From positions 350-17,624 of the forward strand of contig JAVZCB010000007.1 in assembly GCA_038874595.1 (NCBI GenBank): a stretch of 17,275 nucleotides of DNA, read 5' to 3'. The position numbers were made by a program, and so were the translations under genes. Under the pieces are notes generated by a model that saw only the letters and a list, made by a program, of their open reading frames with translations, had not been told where the DNA came from and ran no database searches. The stretch is from Candidatus Micrarchaeia archaeon. Its GTDB lineage: Archaea > Micrarchaeota > Micrarchaeia > CAILAH01. Below, piece after piece: positions 6,521 through 14,953 of this stretch. The first letter of the stretch is position 1; the number at the start of each line of letters is the position of its first letter.

Positions 6521-6550
6521 ATGAGATGTCATATAAGCATAGGTGGAAAT

Positions 6551-7738
6551 ATGGCTCAGGCTGAAGCACAAGCGCAGGATGAAATGTTATTGCAGATGAA
6601 TAAAGCCGCAGAGATGGTAAACAAACATGCCCATGCAAACGGGTTGCACGTAACAATTGAGAGAGACAATAAGGGCGTTTTCAGGATGTATGTGCAGGTG
6701 TGGGATAACGAAAGGAAAGTGGCTGTTGATGACCCTGAAAAATTAAAGCAGTCCCAATCTAAATTAAAAGACTCAATTATAGCATTTGGAACCGAAGCGA
6801 AATCTTCCAATGATGATGCGCAGAAGATGCTTTTCATAAAGATGATTGCCACAACTAAGGAGGGGGGGTTCTCAGAGAGTGATTCAAAGAATCTTAGCAC
6901 AATGCTCGATGGGACATCAGACCGCGCCATTGATAAAATTATTGAGAAAGTAAAAGGGGCGGAAGTTCGTTTTAAGACTGAAGAAGAGGTAAAGGGAGAA
7001 GGGCAGCAGGGCGGCAGGACTTACGCATATCTTCTTACCGATAAGGAGTTCTGGGATATCCTAAAGATGGCAAAAGCAGCAGATTTTGACAGGCTCATGC
7101 ACGAGCGCCTGCAGTATATCCCACAGGAAATGCGTAAAGGTATAGAAGAAAAAGGCACGGGCCACACAGAGGTTGCAAAGGGTAAGGTCCGTGTAGGTGT
7201 GGGTACAGCTGAAAGCAGGTCGGCTGTGATGGAAGGTGAATATAAGGCAGCGCTGCACAGGGGGTTTGAGGAGGATGCGATTAAGGCAATGCAGGCCGGT
7301 AAAGAAGACGCAATGAAAGAAGTGTTTAAGGAGATAAAGGATAACCCAGAGAAGTATAAGGGCCACGGCCTTTCAATTGAAGACGGCAAGATGTACGTAA
7401 GCTACACATTTAAGGGTAAGAAGAAGAAAGTGCTGGTGATGGATGAGAATGGCAAAATCAACCAGGAGGGGTATAAAGACCTCACTCACATATGCAACAC
7501 ACTTGAGAATAAGCAGTACAAAGAATCAAAGAAATGGAAGGATGACCCCGTGAAGGCTCTTATAGCACAAAAGGTTTCAGAGAAGCTGCAATCATCAGGT
7601 GTTGATGTAAACTCTCTCCTCAAAGAAGCGGAGGATAAGTATGCAGAGCTTTACGGTGAGCGCCGCCGCAACGTATTCAGCAAGACAGGGTACCTGTGCG
7701 GCCTGGCTTATGAGGCAGGCGAAATAGCAAAGAAATAG
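6551..7738 (+). CDS. hypothetical protein (charged, largely helical, no signal peptide)
   Basis: 395-aa ORF. The RBS AGGTGG at 6541-6546 supports the ATG at 6551 rather than 6521. Followed by a T-rich tract. Confidence 0.8.
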   Translation: MAQAEAQAQDEMLLQMNKAAEMVNKHAHANGLHVTIERDNKGVFRMYVQVWDNERKVAVDDPEKLKQSQSKLKDSIIAFGTEAKSSNDDAQKMLFIKMIATTKEGGFSESDSKNLSTMLDGTSDRAIDKIIEKVKGAEVRFKTEEEVKGEGQQGGRTYAYLLTDKEFWDILKMAKAADFDRLMHERLQYIPQEMRKGIEEKGTGHTEVAKGKVRVGVGTAESRSAVMEGEYKAALHRGFEEDAIKAMQAGKEDAMKEVFKEIKDNPEKYKGHGLSIEDGKMYVSYTFKGKKKKVLVMDENGKINQEGYKDLTHICNTLENKQYKESKKWKDDPVKALIAQKVSEKLQSSGVDVNSLLKEAEDKYAELYGERRRNVFSKTGYLCGLAYEAGEIAKK

Positions 7739-7775: not shown

Positions 7776-8423
7776 TTACAGCTTTATCTCTTTCCATTGC
7801 GTAACGCCGTTCATCGGTGCACGTGCAAGCACCTTCCCATCCTCATTTTTAACTTCAATCACGGCATCAACGAGGTGCTTGATTGTTGTGACCACTTTTT
7901 CATCGTGCATTCCTTCCTCTATAAGAAACAGCGTTGCCGCATTTGAGTTTTTCAGGCGTGCCCCGGTAATCTGCGTGAACCTATAAATTACTTCTGGGTT
8001 GTTGTAAAGCAGGAGTGTGGATAGTGACTGCATAACCACGCGTAGCTTTTTCTCTGGCTTGAATATCCTCTGCATAGCTTGTGCAATGCCAATGCTCAGA
8101 TCGTTAAGCGCGCTCGGCCCTGGCACCATTATATCCCTGCGCGTGCCCTGCTGTGCACCCAACGTCCATGAATAGCAGTCAATGAATACTAAATCTTTGT
8201 TTGCAAGCTCGCTTATCTTTTTGCTTTTTTCCTCAAGCTCGGCAGGTGCCACATCTGTTGTTATATATACCATCCCGTCCCCATCCTCAGCACCAGATTC
8301 AATGAACTTGAGCGCAATGCTTACCTTTTCAGAACCAGGTGGCCCTATCACCAGCACGTTTGACTTTTCTTTCAAGCCGCCGCCCATCGGCAAATCCAAT
8401 TCAGGAATCCCTATCTTCATCAT
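7776..8423 (-). CDS. KaiC/RAD55-like RecA-fold protein, degenerate Walker motifs
   Basis: GIPELD...GGGL start, Walker A position GPPGSEKV, FIDCYS, Walker B position VVMQSLSTLL, and GMHDEKVVTTIKHLVDAVIE. Confidence 0.88.
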   Translation of the reverse strand: MMKIGIPELDLPMGGGLKEKSNVLVIGPPGSEKVSIALKFIESGAEDGDGMVYITTDVAPAELEEKSKKISELANKDLVFIDCYSWTLGAQQGTRRDIMVPGPSALNDLSIGIAQAMQRIFKPEKKLRVVMQSLSTLLLYNNPEVIYRFTQITGARLKNSNAATLFLIEEGMHDEKVVTTIKHLVDAVIEVKNEDGKVLARAPMNGVTQWKEIKL

Positions 8424-8492
8424 GCAAACCTAACCCCATAACCCCGCATATGCAGGCCTTCTTTTTCTGATAAGATAATCATAACATCACGC

Positions 8493-8864
8493 TTATGCAC
8501 CCAGCATCCCAGCAATAACCCTTGCGCTTTTCTCCATGCTTACAAGCACAAGGCCGAGATTGGCATCCTTGCTTACAAGGCATGCAAGTACAGCCTGGCT
8601 GCCTGCACCCATTGCCACAAGCTTGCCTTCAGCACTCTCAATTATCGCCTGGCCAAACTCGCCAAGCTTCAGCTCACTGACAGAAGATTCGCCTGTTCCT
8701 ACTAGCGTGGCGGTCATCGCAGCAATCGTCCTGCCATCAACGTAGTTTGGCATATCGCTTGCAATCATAAGCCCATCCCGCCTCACTATCGCACTTGCCT
8801 CAACATCGCCAACCCTACGCAGGTCAGCAAGCACAGACTCAAGCTCCTGCCTTTTCTCAGCCAT
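8493..8864 (-). CDS. Roadblock/LC7 (MglB-like) protein
   Basis: 123 aa with VEASAIVRRDGLMIAS, IAAMTATL and ANLGLV, a classic Roadblock pattern. The ATG overlaps the upstream stop (TAATG). Confidence 0.95.
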   Translation of the reverse strand: MAEKRQELESVLADLRRVGDVEASAIVRRDGLMIASDMPNYVDGRTIAAMTATLVGTGESSVSELKLGEFGQAIIESAEGKLVAMGAGSQAVLACLVSKDANLGLVLVSMEKSARVIAGMLGA

Positions 8865-10015
8865 TATTTACCACCTTCAACAATCTTATCTATAAGAAGC
8901 TTAAGCGCTTCCATGCATCCCTCACCGGTTATTGCAACGGTCCCGACAACCTCGGTGTCAAGGCCAAGGAGCTCCTTTATCTTCTCAGGCTTGAGCGCGC
9001 TCTTTTCATCCTGCTTGTTTGCAGCTACAATATATGGCAAGCTATACCTTGATACGTGCGCGAGCATCTCCTTTGCGCGTGCGAGCATCTCCGGCTTTGT
9101 AGAGTCAACAACCAGTACTACACCAAACGCATCTTTGTTTAAGATGTCAAGCATAAACTCAAACCGCTCCTGGCCAGGCGTCCCGAACAAGTCAACACTA
9201 AGACCGCTGTGCTCTACATAGCCGTGGTCAAGCGCAATCGTTGTCCCCATCCTGTTTACTGAAACGGCCTTGGTACTTATCTTGTGTATGAATGTTGACT
9301 TGCCTGCGTGGAACGGCCCTGTTATAATCACTTTGGGCACGTATACTGCAATGCCATCAAACCCAACCCTGAAAGGTATGACTTTCCCAATGAATTTCCC
9401 AGGCGCCTTCACGATTTTGAAGAAACTTCTTGAGAGCATCCTGTCCTCCACGCTTTTTGCCTCTATTACATAATCAAAGTGCTCTCCTATGCGTGCGCTT
9501 TCCGTTTCATCCCACGAAGTGTAAAGGCAGAGCACCGTTACCCCTTTCTTCTTAAGCTCATCAATCTTGTCAAGCATCCCGCCCGTGAATGCATACTTAG
9601 CATCCATTCCAGACAGCGAATCAATAACCATTATGCCAGGTTTTACTTCCTGGAATGCCGCGTCAATGGCCTCAAGTATTGTTTTTGGCTTTGTTGCGTC
9701 TTTTGCGGCAAACCGCTCTGTGCTCGGTAGCCCAAGCGCGGATGAGAACGCATCAATGAACACCATTCTCCTGAATGCTTCTTGTGGATAAATATACTTT
9801 CCTATATCCTTTCTTACCTGCTCTGGGAAGGTGTTCTCTATAAAATATACACCCTGAACAGAAGGGTTTGCCTGTAATGCCTGGTATGCAAACGCCCGCG
9901 CATCAATACCCGGTGTTGTGATTATGATGACACTTTTCCCTTCAAGAAAACCTCCTGAAAGATGCTCGTCAAGCTTGGGGATACCGGAAGAAAACGGCAT
10001 GACTTTTATTTTCAC
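8864..10015 (-). CDS. fusion protein: degenerate KaiC/RAD55-like domain + MglA-like small GTPase
   Basis: N-terminal SGIPKLDEHLSGG, Walker A position TTPGIDAR, FIDAFS and VIDSLS. C-terminal G1 GPFHAGKST, G2 region GTTIALDHG, G3 FGTPGQERF, G4 NKQD, G5 TVAITG. Alternative ATG start at 10000. Confidence 0.92.
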   Translation of the reverse strand: MKIKVMPFSSGIPKLDEHLSGGFLEGKSVIIITTPGIDARAFAYQALQANPSVQGVYFIENTFPEQVRKDIGKYIYPQEAFRRMVFIDAFSSALGLPSTERFAAKDATKPKTILEAIDAAFQEVKPGIMVIDSLSGMDAKYAFTGGMLDKIDELKKKGVTVLCLYTSWDETESARIGEHFDYVIEAKSVEDRMLSRSFFKIVKAPGKFIGKVIPFRVGFDGIAVYVPKVIITGPFHAGKSTFIHKISTKAVSVNRMGTTIALDHGYVEHSGLSVDLFGTPGQERFEFMLDILNKDAFGVVLVVDSTKPEMLARAKEMLAHVSRYSLPYIVAANKQDEKSALKPEKIKELLGLDTEVVGTVAITGEGCMEALKLLIDKIVEGGK

Positions 10016-10063
10016 ACTGAATTTAATAAATTAACCTGCCATAAAAAATCATCAGGTGTTTTG

Positions 10064-10249
10064 ATGGCTGTTACAATAAATCACGAGAAGTGTATCTACT
10101 GTGGTGCTTGTGTTGCAACATGCCCCTACCTTGCACTGAGATTAAGGGAAGTGTATGTTGAAGTTTATCCTGACAAGTGCGTTGAGTGCGGGCTTTGTGC
10201 AAAGGCGTGCCCGATGGGGTGCATATCCCAGCCAAACCAGAAAAAATAA
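10064..10249 (+). CDS. 2[4Fe-4S] ferredoxin
   Basis: Two CxxCxxCxxxCP motifs (CIYCGACVATCP, CVECGLCAKACP). The AGGTG RBS supports the ATG at 10064. Confidence 0.95.
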   Translation: MAVTINHEKCIYCGACVATCPYLALRLREVYVEVYPDKCVECGLCAKACPMGCISQPNQKK

Positions 10250-11662: not shown

Positions 11663-12412
11663 ATGAATTTCAACCCGCGCATGAAGTTTGTATGGTTTAT
11701 ACAGGCACTTGCGGCAGTGCTTGTGCTGTTTGTATGGGCACTTCTCATGCTTGCACTTGTTCCGTTTGATGGTTCGTTTTTTGATGGCATCTCAAACAGG
11801 GTGCTCGTAGCAGTTATCGTGATTGCACTAGCACTATTTATTATGATAGTGGTATATGTTGGTGCAGAGCTGTTCCACCGCAATTTTGAGTATGATTTCC
11901 AGCCTGATGCGTTTGTTGTGCGCAAAGGCGTTATTGCAAGAAAAGAAATGATAATCCCCTACAAGGATATAGAATCTGCAAAGGTGCTGCGCTCTGGTGT
12001 GCACGCGCTTGACCAGATATTTGGTCTTACGTGTGTGCAGGTCAAAGCAAAAGGCAAGATTGTAATCATCCCAGGCATAACAGAACCGGAAGTGTTCTTG
12101 AGAAGATTGATGGCTAACGTGCAGGGAAACGAGATGATAAAGAACAGCGAGATATACTTATCAGAGAAGGAAATCCTGATGAAGCTGTCAGCGGATGTGA
12201 AGGCAATAGGTGAAAAAGTTGAGCAGCTGGTTGCCGAGCAGAAGCGCCAGCAGCTTGTGCAGAAGCCAACCATACAGAATTACCCATTTGAGTTCTTAAA
12301 GACCGGGAAAGATATTGAAGCAGAAAAGCTGGTAGATATAAAAACATTTGGTGGCTTAAAGAAGCCTGATGAGGATACGCTACCTCAGAAGAACAGAAAA
12401 GATAAGAAATAG
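11663..12412 (+). CDS. membrane protein with bacterial PH (bPH_2/YdbS-like) domain
   Basis: Two TM helices followed by FEY...VVRKGVIARKEMIIPYKDIESA...LDQIFGL. The C-terminal tail is coiled-coil-like. A TATA-like GAAAATCTTTAAAA lies at 11611-11624. Confidence 0.8.
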   Translation: MNFNPRMKFVWFIQALAAVLVLFVWALLMLALVPFDGSFFDGISNRVLVAVIVIALALFIMIVVYVGAELFHRNFEYDFQPDAFVVRKGVIARKEMIIPYKDIESAKVLRSGVHALDQIFGLTCVQVKAKGKIVIIPGITEPEVFLRRLMANVQGNEMIKNSEIYLSEKEILMKLSADVKAIGEKVEQLVAEQKRQQLVQKPTIQNYPFEFLKTGKDIEAEKLVDIKTFGGLKKPDEDTLPQKNRKDKK

Positions 12413-12420
12413 GTGTTTTT

Positions 12421-12609
12421 ATGTCAGGTGAGGAGGTTACAGAGTTAAACAGGTTTGAGATTGCAAGGATTATTGGAGCGCGCTCTCTTCAGCTTTCTCT
12501 GGGTGCCCCCCCAATGATACAAGTCCCCCCAAAGATGGTTGACCCGCTTGAGCTTGCTCGCGAAGAGTTCAGGCAAGGGGTCATCCCGCTGATGGTTATT
12601 CGCGGCTGA
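12421..12609 (+). CDS. rpoK: DNA-directed RNA polymerase subunit K (Rpo6)
   Basis: NRFEIARIIGARSLQLSLGAP...DPLELAREEF...IPL, with an AGGTG RBS. Confidence 0.97.
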   Translation: MSGEEVTELNRFEIARIIGARSLQLSLGAPPMIQVPPKMVDPLELAREEFRQGVIPLMVIRG

Positions 12610-12680
12610 ATTTTTCCTTCTTATCGGAATATTTAAAAATTAGCTTATTCTCAATTATCCCTCTGTAAAGCAGGAAAGGG

Positions 12681-13358
12681 ATGTTTATGGAATCAAAGAG
12701 AGTAAGTTTGTTTAAGGGCAGGAAGAATCTTGAGATGCTCGTGCATATGCGCGAAGGCAAGCTGCTTTTTAAGAAAGCAGACCTGTGCACCGATAAATCA
12801 TTGATGGATGTGCCAGTTGAAGTGCAGATGGCAAACGCATCCCTTATGCACGCTGCCAGGAATAATCTCCTGGAGAAGGGCAGGGAGGCCCTAATATCAT
12901 CGGCCAACCCAAACATATATGATAAGTTTGGGTTTACCCCATTGTTCTGGGCACTTGCAAACCGGAACGAAGACTTTGCCCTTATGCTGCTTTTGTACGA
13001 TGCTTCAATACATATGAGGAACCCGTTAGGTGAAACACCGCTTATGGTTGCATCTTATTTTGGGATGTGTGGCGTCATCAAAGAAATAATAATTAAAGGG
13101 GCAGAGCTGAACGCGCGCAACTTGTACAGGATGACTGCACTTATGTGCGCAGCACAGGGGGGAAGCGAGAATGCAGTAGCGCTTCTTATAAGTGCCGGTG
13201 CAAACCCATTGCTAAAGGACAGCAGGCACCTATCTGCACTTGACTACGCGCGCTATCTGAAGCATAGAGATGTTGAGATGCTACTGCGTGCAGTGTGTAC
13301 GCCAGGCCGGCCTCTTAAAACCGAAAACTATTTAAACAAAGAACTCGCTAAGTTGTAG
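12681..13358 (+). CDS. ankyrin repeat protein
   Basis: 33-aa periodic repeats GFTPLFWA, GETPLMVA, RMTALMCAA and HLSALDYA. Confidence 0.92.
   Translation: MFMESKRVSLFKGRKNLEMLVHMREGKLLFKKADLCTDKSLMDVPVEVQMANASLMHAARNNLLEKGREALISSANPNIYDKFGFTPLFWALANRNEDFALMLLLYDASIHMRNPLGETPLMVASYFGMCGVIKEIIIKGAELNARNLYRMTALMCAAQGGSENAVALLISAGANPLLKDSRHLSALDYARYLKHRDVEMLLRAVCTPGRPLKTENYLNKELAKL
13323..13337 (+). promoter_or_regulatory. BRE-TATA-like promoter inside the 3' end of the ankyrin gene
   Basis: GAAAACTATTTAAAC about 25-35 nt upstream of the ATG at 13361, which has no RBS (likely leaderless). Confidence 0.5.
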
Positions 13359-13360
13359 CT

Positions 13361-14953
13361 ATGAGCGCAAAAATGCTTACATTCATGATGTTTGCCCTTC
13401 TGGCAGTTATGGTGTCTGCCGCAGATTATTATATAGGAGACACGATGGCTGTATCAGAAAGCGTGCTTGGTACAGTAACTTCTGGACTGCAGGTGCAGAT
13501 TGGCAGCGATTCCACAACACATACAATCCCTTCGGGGATGCTGGACCGTGCAACTGACCCTGTAGTTATAGAAAGTGCATCAAATAATCTGGAAGCATTT
13601 TACAATAACAATGATAATGGGGGTAGCACTCTTGTAGTGGTACCTGAAGGAGTGCTTATAGAAGGCGCAAAGCTGCACACATATATGTGGGACATCCCGG
13701 ATAACAGGGAGTGCTATCAGCAGGTTTCAATTTCACCGGAGATTTCATATGTTACTCCTGGTAGCGTGATTGAGTTCCGTACTAATGTTGTAGGTGCAGA
13801 GTGGCATGTTGAGTATGGAAAGCTGTATGTGCGCGGCACAAAGGTGTTTTATACTGCACCAACTGTGCTCAATGCCAGTAGGCTTGTTGATACAGTAACT
13901 GTTGTCAAGGGCAAGTGCAAAGCTACTGCCACTGTAAATGTTGAAGCTGATAACGGGGTAAAGCTTGAAATTACAGCCCCGCAGTCACTCAAAGTGGGGA
14001 GCAGTGCATCGGTATATGCTCTTCTCAAAGATGAGTATGGTAACCCTGTCTCAGGCAAGAAAGTTAGATTTACACTGGCGTCTGCAAACGGTGTGCCCGC
14101 GGCAAGCCTTAAGGCAGGTAACGATGAAGGCCTTGTGGTTGATGCTATAACTTGGGACAATGGTAAGGCGTATGTAACTTTAAGCGCTGGCAATAAGTCT
14201 GCAAATTATACGCTTAAGGCACAGCACAACCGTGCAAACTCAATTATGAAGATAAGTGTTGTTATAGAGGATGACGGCGTTAATCCAGACGCCGGCAATA
14301 CTGACAATGATAGTAATAGTAACAGTAATGGCAATGATAATAATGGTAACAATAATGGTGGCGGAAGTTATTCTGGTGGTGGGGGTGAAAACACCGGTCA
14401 TCTTGGAAGCGGCGGTGTAAGTGTTGTAGGAGTTACCCGTGAAGAAGAGAGTGTTGAAAACAAAACAAAACCAGCAGAGGTGGAGCCCGTTTCAGAAAAG
14501 CCAGCCGAGCAGCCGGTTGCAGTAGGTACGGCCACAGCTGAGGAAGTACGTGTTACTTACTATAAGCGCGTTTATCTTGGTGAGGATATTGTGCTTACCC
14601 TGAAATATTCCAATGGCGAGCCTGTTGTTGGCAGGAGAGTTACAATATCTAGCCAGGATGGTTCAGCTGAGGTTGAAAGCGACCAGCAAGGTGTTGCTAG
14701 GTATACGCCAAAATCGATTGGTGATTATCGTATAAGGATAGAGGGCTCAACGAACGAGCTTACAGTAAAAGTCGTTGAGAAGCCAACCGCTCATGTGGAG
14801 GAGCAGAAGCCTAAAGAGGCAACATTTGATATCGTTGCCGCACTAACAGGCGGGAACACATCTTCATTGCCGTTGATTGCAGTCCTGCTTGTAGTGCTCG
14901 TGCTGGTGGTTGGTGCTGCAGTATATTTCTTAAACCAGAAAGAAGAGATGTAA
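13361..14953 (+). CDS. cell-surface protein with Ig-like (Big_1/invasin-like) domains and C-terminal TM anchor
   Basis: Signal peptide, LKDEYGNPVSGKKVRFT and LKYSNGEPVVGRRVTI motifs, N/G/S-rich linker, and a C-terminal hydrophobic helix with a short charged tail. Confidence 0.85.
   Translation: MSAKMLTFMMFALLAVMVSAADYYIGDTMAVSESVLGTVTSGLQVQIGSDSTTHTIPSGMLDRATDPVVIESASNNLEAFYNNNDNGGSTLVVVPEGVLIEGAKLHTYMWDIPDNRECYQQVSISPEISYVTPGSVIEFRTNVVGAEWHVEYGKLYVRGTKVFYTAPTVLNASRLVDTVTVVKGKCKATATVNVEADNGVKLEITAPQSLKVGSSASVYALLKDEYGNPVSGKKVRFTLASANGVPAASLKAGNDEGLVVDAITWDNGKAYVTLSAGNKSANYTLKAQHNRANSIMKISVVIEDDGVNPDAGNTDNDSNSNSNGNDNNGNNNGGGSYSGGGGENTGHLGSGGVSVVGVTREEESVENKTKPAEVEPVSEKPAEQPVAVGTATAEEVRVTYYKRVYLGEDIVLTLKYSNGEPVVGRRVTISSQDGSAEVESDQQGVARYTPKSIGDYRIRIEGSTNELTVKVVEKPTAHVEEQKPKEATFDIVAALTGGNTSSLPLIAVLLVVLVLVVGAAVYFLNQKEEM
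14297..14415 (+). repeat. low-complexity Asn/Ser/Gly-rich coding tract
   Basis: Encodes NTDNDSNSNSNGNDNNGNNNGGGSYSGGGGENTGHLGSGG, rich in AAT/AGT/GGT codons. Confidence 0.8.

Follow-up and report, generated by a model that had tools for sequence, protein, structure and literature searches.

The window analysed here, a 17,275-nt stretch of the genome of a Candidatus Micrarchaeia archaeon (GCA_038874595.1, contig JAVZCB010000007.1), carries three adjacent minus-strand genes, labelled F, R and K in this report, which probably encode a Roadblock-regulated GTPase switch of the GTPGQ type carried by a scaffold whose KaiC-like domains are dead or degenerate. Judged from sequence comparison, the trio appears to be a real, conserved and widespread signalling module of the MglA/MglB kind, and the copy in the window is an ordinary member of the family. 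Gene F (8864-10015, minus strand) encodes an inactivated KaiC-like domain followed by a small GTPase domain, in 383 amino acids (aa) from GTG 10015 or 378 aa from ATG 10000; gene R (8493-8864, minus strand) encodes a Roadblock/LC7 (MglB-like) protein of 123 aa; and gene K (7776-8423, minus strand) encodes a degenerate single-domain KaiC-like protein (DUF7504/DUF7090) of 215 aa. An earlier reading made from the DNA letters alone (hereafter the sequence-only reading) had described three co-oriented open reading frames (ORFs), the first two coupled by a TAATG overlap, and both the ORF calls and the sequence agree with it. The stop/start overlap (8862-8866, minus strand) is of the kind associated with translational coupling, the last A of the TAA stop of F (8866-8864) being the first A of the ATG start of R (8864-8862), and K lies 69 nt downstream of R.

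Domain assignment with Pfam profiles gave the same families for all three proteins as had been proposed without searches. In F, the KaiC profile PF06745 covered residues 9-226 (1.3e-10, 41.5 bits against a cut-off of 26.6) and an Arf/Ras-type GTPase profile covered residues 228-378 (2.7e-13). From NCBIfam came only generic small_GTP and sub-threshold KaiC models. The inactivated KaiC (iKaiC) domain (9338-9991, minus strand; residues 9-226 in the numbering from GTG) has a RecA/KaiC fold with a destroyed P-loop. In an alignment of this domain and of K with a canonical KaiC-like protein from this genome, GIDARA of F fell opposite the canonical GAGKST (Walker A site PGIDARAF, 9913-9890), so that F has lost both the Lys and the Ser/Thr of the P-loop; the second residue of the catalytic Glu-Glu pair is Asn in F, and the Walker B Asp is retained. 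The 'pseudo-KaiC' label that the sequence-only reading had given to both F and K holds on this alignment, and the P-loop site reads PG[IV][DE] in 80/80 related F proteins. A set of 21 pattern matches to Walker A in F homologues was examined and rejected, all of them falling at a non-homologous GGxPxGK[ST] turn.

An AlphaFold2 (AF2) model of F had a mean predicted local distance difference test (pLDDT) score of 87.0 and a predicted template modelling (pTM) score of 0.82. By VIA-align, its N-terminal domain matched PH0284 (Z 26.3, root-mean-square deviation (rmsd) 2.4, 223 aligned residues), the CI domain of KaiC (Z 24.1), Sso2452 (Z 24.0) and ArlH/FlaH (Z 19.9). A continuous strand (residues 221-232) joins the KaiC-like domain to beta1 of the G domain in the model, and the fusion is therefore predicted to have no flexible linker, which argues for rigid coupling of the two domains. 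Foldseek searches with the whole model were dominated by two-domain KaiC proteins at rmsd values of 11-14 Å, and these matches are thus uninformative on the domain arrangement of F.

The small GTPase domain (8882-9334, minus strand; residues 228-378, from Pfam and motif reading) contains a readable series of nucleotide-binding motifs, namely G1 GPFHAGKS (9319-9296), G2 Thr258-Thr259, G3 GTPGQ (9184-9170), G4 NKQD (9019-9008) and a G5-like Ala361, all on the minus strand. Across 45 F sequences, residues G233, G238, K239, T258, T259, G278, T279, G281, Q282 and N333-D336 are invariant, P280 of G3 is at least 90% conserved, and Arg255, three residues before the Thr-Thr pair, is nearly invariant. 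The best structural match of the G domain in VIA-align is Arf6 (Z 19.1), with Ras and Rab proteins also matching, and chains of Arf-like, Ras and Rab type likewise come first in both the phmmer search of the PDB and the VIA-align comparison. Among the matches listed, the nearest relatives that consist of a stand-alone G domain are about 40% identical, and some bear the name 'ATP/GTP-binding protein'; GTPGQ is present in 118 of the 120 stand-alone relatives listed.

R was assigned to Robl_LC7 (3.2e-14, 52.9 bits, cut-off 23), a domain that Pfam also found in 45/45 R orthologues. Its Arg-Asp-Gly motif (8780-8772, minus strand, read from the sequence) is strongly conserved among these orthologues, with R29 and G31 invariant and D30 at least 90% conserved, and its relatives in the PDB are Roadblock proteins from archaea (7yh1, 7f8m and 9jue, with E near 1e-14), followed by CvnB5 (1e-6). 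According to the available text of a survey of MglA proteins (Wuichet & Sogaard-Andersen 2015, PMC4316618), MglA groups 2-5 have GTPGQ in G3 and a Thr where group 1 has its arginine finger, group 1 (Myxococcus) has TVPGQ and Arg-Thr, and the MglB proteins coupled to groups 2-5 have an Asp-Gly pair in common. By these published marks (GTPGQ, Thr-Thr, Asp-Gly and gene coupling) the sequences of F and R fit the pairing between an MglA of groups 2-5 and the MglB coupled to it, and the G3 that the sequence-only reading had called MglA-type is more precisely the GTPGQ with Thr-Thr of groups 2-5, not the TVPGQ with Arg of Myxococcus group 1. The survey, in the same text, kept proteins of 150-240 aa and described an archaeal group 4 without conserved neighbours; F, at 378-383 aa, is absent from it because proteins above 240 aa were left out, a limit that F exceeds and that was a survey cut-off, not a biochemical criterion.

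K matched DUF7504 (PF24336; 4e-20, 73.5 bits, cut-off 27), KaiC (PF06745; 6.1e-17, 62.2 bits) and DUF7090. Its P-loop remnant GPPGSEKVS (8345-8319, minus strand, read from the sequence) has GSEKVS where the canonical protein has GAGKST, with Glu32 in place of Gly and Val34 in place of Ser/Thr; in addition, Thr-Asp replaces the catalytic Glu-Glu pair and Gln132 replaces the Walker B Asp. The family alignment retains the P-loop Lys33 in 63/69 sequences, Gly32 in 51/69, Ser/Thr34 in 28/69 and the Walker B Asp in 39/68, by which measure the K family is partly degenerate and the K of the window is among its most eroded copies. When K orthologues were checked with Pfam, DUF7504 was found in 34/45 and KaiC in 44/45.

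The F-type fusion is widespread: searches gave 955 proteins at E ≤ 0.001, matches in at least 585 species genomes, and 228 representative clusters at E ≤ 1e-30, and the source names are archaeal or generic for all 120 fusion matches listed. From these genomes, a sample of 80 loci spanning about ten phyla was taken for a synteny survey, in which ORFs were called and searched with hidden Markov models (HMMs) iterated from the R and K of the window, and a gene was counted when it lay on the same strand as F and within 1.6 kb of it. R was present in 67/80 loci (49/57 of those flanked on each side by 1.6 kb or more), a distinct KaiC-like gene in 62/80 (68 when counted on either strand; 46/57), and both in 55/80 (41/57). 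The coupling between F and R is tight: in 46/80 loci R either overlaps the end of F or follows it within 10 nt. The commonest order was K-F-R, found exactly so in 31 loci, including 24 of the 30 from Methanobacteriota, and the F-R-K order of the window was rare (4 of 80). Any further gene family was shared by 13 of the 80 loci at most, and the trio thus constitutes the conserved unit. Carrier loci came from Methanobacteriota (30), Bathyarchaeota (12), Thermoplasmatota and Nitrososphaerota among others, the majority of them non-DPANN. The conserved linkage on which the sequence-only reading had staked its proposal of a joint module is therefore found in other genomes, and recurrence of the trio across archaeal phyla indicates an arrangement far beyond chance and not a DPANN speciality.

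Distribution within the class of the window was patchier, the fusion being found in 9/41 genomes (8 intact, including that of the window, and 1 interrupted by TAG) and the remainder giving no match with F as the query. The interrupted copy, in relative G008 (C15:9545-10567, L010), is an F orthologue split by an in-frame TAG with an adjoining Roadblock on a long branch, and may be either decaying or the product of an assembly error.

Two further gene families were observed to accompany the module in particular lineages. A gene for a V4R-domain protein (Bet3/TRAPPC3-like) lies inside or directly after the module in 13/80 loci (L033, L034, L038, L045, L046, L048, L053, L055, L071, L075, L079, L086 and L101), from Archaeoglobaceae, Thermoplasmatota, Hecatellales, Bathyarchaeia and Woesearchaeota, with scores over the Pfam cut-off in 13/13; a search of the genome of the window found no such gene. 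A gene for a small protein with a CRS1/YhbY (CRM) RNA-binding domain lies 3' of R in 12/80 loci (L059, L060, L072, L074, L076, L081, L082, L084, L089, L090, L094 and L098; Pfam was run on a single representative, L059), all of them Methanosarcinales/Methanoperedens-type records.

The genome of the window contains three strong KaiC-like genes and further Roadblock genes; in the control genomes of H. volcanii, S. acidocaldarius and M. acetivorans, the search for Robl_LC7 found none. A second Roadblock gene, encoding a protein of 122 aa that is 71% identical to R, stands immediately upstream of one of the three KaiC-like genes, a canonical one, the pair occupying positions 166772-168096 of contig C2 of the same genome (G000; 461-1785 in locus L110), on the minus strand and outside the window. 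The KaiC-like protein of this pair (241 aa) has an intact GAGKST P-loop, and no GTPase lies beside it. A Roadblock and KaiC pair was found at 7/9 of the corresponding loci of relatives, and no KaiC-like ORF was found in the other two (3.3-kb loci). In the Roadblock tree, the module copies of the genus of the window together with that of G008 form a clade (support 95/98) inside the KaiC-linked group, from which it follows that R was placed between F and K by lineage-specific duplication, and on this tree the rare F-R-K order of the window is a product of that event. The KaiC-linked history of R therefore supports a real Roadblock-KaiC connection. It also qualifies the suggestion of the sequence-only reading that the module is self-contained, which is not strictly so because a 71%-identical Roadblock paralogue adjoins an active-looking KaiC in the same genome. 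In relative G018, F, K, R and a KaiC gene stand in one row.

A third Roadblock domain was observed at the C-terminus of a protein of about 1218 aa (Pfam 9.9e-09; C2, 725-4378 in locus L133, minus strand, outside the window), which has N-terminal hydrophobic segments and long coiled-coil-like regions. Similar open frames of 1219-1765 aa were found in relatives G001-G008 and G018, and the protein might anchor Roadblock partners at the membrane.

Upstream of F, ATG 10000 is the more likely start than GTG 10015, because homologues begin there and because a TATA-like sequence, TTTATTAAA (10022-10030, minus strand, read from the sequence), lies 26 nt 5' of it. As the distance from TTTATTAAA to this ATG fits general archaeal promoter geometry, the sequence suggests a leaderless F mRNA transcribed from a putative promoter at this site. 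The box sits in a divergent spacer of about 60 nt, measured between the likely starts, that F shares with a gene for a 2x[4Fe-4S] ferredoxin (9962-10249, plus strand). The remaining neighbours in the window are housekeeping genes (tRNA intron endonuclease, PAC2, aIF2-alpha, L44e, GINS, primase and geranylgeranyl reductase), and no composition break was seen in the window. Convergent with K is an ORF for a Lys/Glu-rich protein of 405 aa without a Pfam match (6521-7738, plus strand). On the other side, a series of possible surface or interaction proteins (11663-14953, plus strand) comprises one with a bacterial PH domain (11663-12412), one with ankyrin repeats (12681-13358) and one of 530 aa in which Ig-like (Big_1) similarity is weak (13361-14953). 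The source genome is 0.92 Mb in size, in 7 contigs and 93.5% complete, and the nearest homologues are named Candidatus Micrarchaeota, so that the DPANN origin previously guessed for this DNA is correct. A defence-system reading was also considered and rejected, PADLOC having given just mad8 matches at the P-loop level (E 0.001-0.002).

A probable mechanism can be proposed for the switch. F would be a GTPase of the MglA group 2-5 or CvnD type, rigidly fused to a KaiC-like domain unable to bind or hydrolyse ATP. R would be the cognate Roadblock/MglB-type regulator, binding as a dimer to the switch face of the G domain and setting its GTP/GDP state, serving as GAP (GTPase-activating protein) and possibly also as GEF (guanine nucleotide exchange factor), as MglB does. 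The role of R as a GAP is plausible by analogy with MglA/MglB, given also the conserved Arg-Asp-Gly motif and one natural fusion of the two proteins. K would join the inactive KaiC domain of F at the interface usual between RecA-type subunits, and the resulting hetero-oligomeric F-K scaffold would display the G domains and could dock onto active KaiC-like ATPases; the output may feed into the KaiC network. Binding of R to the G domain, its GAP action, the pairing of F with K and the oligomeric state are thus what we infer for this system. A bolder form of the proposal, unlikely as a whole, is that F and K co-assemble as a RecA-type ring or stack, possibly with active KaiC paralogues, in which several G domains share one KaiC-like platform and their Roadblock-set GTP/GDP state gates KaiC-type signalling; that such a hybrid GTPase-KaiC hub is ancestral in archaea; and that, where V4R joins the operon, Roadblock, V4R and GTPase together form a non-Asgard counterpart of TRAPP/Ragulator.

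Structure prediction of the complex, which the sequence-only reading had put forward as a check, bore on the pairing of F with K and gave a positive result at the level of 'weak support' only. The F and K runs shared at least 71% of contacts, the pLDDT of the partners was at least 86, and the median interaction prediction score from aligned errors (ipSAE) was 0.59 against 0.00 for the best control. In calibration, the mark used was reached by 116/157 solved complexes and 2/215 mismatched pairs; scores up to 0.60 included just 18/157 solved complexes and both of the mismatches that passed, so that the F-K prediction is weak by calibration, and its pass may reflect likeness since KaiC/RecA-type assemblies are solved. 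The natural fusion is P0249, a single chain of 527 aa with iKaiC, GTPase and Roadblock parts, 1 of 150 representatives listed, and possibly a Rosetta-stone fusion of F and R. Fused forms longer than 671 aa were not found at E ≤ 1e-10, which is weak evidence.

Several other observations weigh, like the calibration of the F-K prediction, against a switch of the proposed kind. P0249 is a single case that might stem from a gene-calling artefact, and the Arg-Asp-Gly motif is absent from its Roadblock part. The G domain of F is closest, in both sequence and fold and among the matches listed, to Arf-like GTPases, MglA being absent from the best 60 PDB phmmer matches and from the best 50 fold matches of F, an absence that does not exclude kinship with MglA, and R matched bacterial MglB marginally, at E 0.02. 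R was not within 1.6 kb of F in 13/80 loci, 4 of which are cut near F by a contig end, and F and R occur without K in Woesearchaeota, where F-R is found in 3/4 loci, and in three loci of Altiarchaeota (L061, L062 and L078). Finally, in the relatives G003, G005 and G006, F and K stand together without R, and the sole free-standing Roadblock lies elsewhere beside a canonical KaiC.

The principal alternative, an unlikely one, is that the primary partner of R is a KaiC-like fold, R being an adaptor that docks on KaiC-type rings, whether of K, the N-terminal domain of F or the active KaiC paralogues, and that the GTPase is otherwise regulated or self-sufficient. This would account for the placement of the 71%-identical paralogue upstream of a KaiC-like gene whose P-loop is intact, without a GTPase beside them, for the same pairing at 7/9 loci of relatives, for the F-K-R-KaiC row in G018 and for the origin of the module R clade (95/98) within the KaiC-linked Roadblock group, from which it was recruited by duplication, and the nearly invariant Arg255 could then act as an intrinsic finger. 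However, R directly follows the G-domain end of F, by overlap or within 10 nt, in 46/80 loci, F-R pairs exist without any K, and P0249 fuses its Roadblock part to the G-domain end; Roadblock/MglB-GTPase coupling is moreover the documented pattern for GTPGQ GTPases, as given in the available text of PMC4316618. The two readings of R, as GAP and as KaiC adaptor, are not exclusive but compatible with each other.

The remaining explanations have less to recommend them. The sequence-only reading had suggested that in a DPANN cell the module could govern polarity, host attachment or nutrient state, and retention of the module in a 0.92-Mb genome would be consistent with such a DPANN-specific device, as would, more speculatively, the use of the membrane-anchored coiled-coil Roadblock protein of about 1218 aa as a tether for the Roadblock/GTPase pair. 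Against this, most carriers in the 80 loci are non-DPANN (30 from Methanobacteriota and 12 from Bathyarchaeota), the module has no conserved neighbour of pilus, adhesin or transporter type in those loci, the fusion occurs in just 9/41 genomes of the class of the window, one of them TAG-interrupted, and R is apart from F-K in three close relatives, so this part of the proposal is abandoned as very improbable. That the three genes are neighbours without joint function, or belong to a mobile or defence island, is scarcely credible: the patchy distribution within Micrarchaeia and the variable gene order speak for it, but the same three families occur together in 55/80 loci from about ten phyla with differing flanking genes, and in the window they lie in a housekeeping context with no composition break seen. 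The Roadblock-regulated GTPGQ switch on a KaiC-like scaffold is accordingly retained as the probable explanation.

How archaea transduce signals is poorly understood. Proposals have been made for KaiC-like proteins as the hubs and for Roadblock-GTPase pairs as ancient switches, two themes that to our knowledge have not yet been joined experimentally. The module described here physically fuses them, and is conserved from DPANN archaea to methanogens, Archaeoglobi and Bathyarchaeia, so that the biochemistry of one F/R/K set would inform hundreds of genomes. Such work would also bear on the activation of GTPases of the GTPGQ type, in which no arginine finger is evident. Of the side leads, the most intriguing is the occasional V4R partner, which may point to prokaryotic antecedents of TRAPP-like GTPase platforms. 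The separate parts, the Roadblock-GTPase pairing and the idea of an inactivated KaiC are already known. A full-text literature search, which did not cover the KaiC survey of Makarova et al. 2017, where the trio may already be listed, found no paper on the F/R/K trio, on DUF7504 or describing an operon of V4R, Roadblock and GTPase, and Podar 2008, on V4R, mentions neither GTPase nor Roadblock.

Compared with known systems, the trio shares with Rag-Ragulator and TRAPP the partnership of Roadblock-fold proteins with a small GTPase and, in 13/80 related loci, the presence of a gene for a V4R (Bet3/TRAPPC3-like) protein. However, Rag GTPases have a C-terminal Roadblock domain of their own, whereas F ends with the G domain and a fused Roadblock was seen, among the representatives listed, in P0249 only; unlike TRAPP, the module of the window is without a V4R gene, none having been found in its genome. 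The N-terminal domain of F has the same fold as the archaeal KaiC-like proteins PH0284, Sso2452 and ArlH/FlaH, but these keep the P-loop and F has none, and they differ also from the K of the window, which has lost the P-loop Ser/Thr together with the Glu-Glu pair and the Asp of Walker B. The notion of catalytically dead KaiC domains as signalling adaptors is that of Makarova, Galperin & Koonin 2017, as relayed in the available text of PMC5847659.

The nearest likeness in logic is to MglA/MglB of M. xanthus and Thermus thermophilus, in which a GTPase without the G3 Asp (xxPGQ) likewise adjoins a Roadblock/LC7 gene and the Roadblock dimer positions intrinsic catalytic residues, as would be expected here; in contrast to that pair, the system of the window has GTPGQ with Thr-Thr, a fusion to a dead KaiC domain and a third, KaiC-like gene. 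MglA groups 2-5, including the actinobacterial CvnB/CvnD proteins, are closer in their motifs, to judge from the available account of these groups, as they share GTPGQ, Thr-Thr and the Roadblock Asp-Gly, and R matches CvnB5 at 1e-6. Unlike the conservons that contain CvnB and CvnD, the module has neither a CvnA-type kinase nor CvnC, and in contrast to groups 2-5 and the conservons alike, its G domain makes up the C-terminal half of an approximately 380-aa protein whose KaiC-like partners are conserved.

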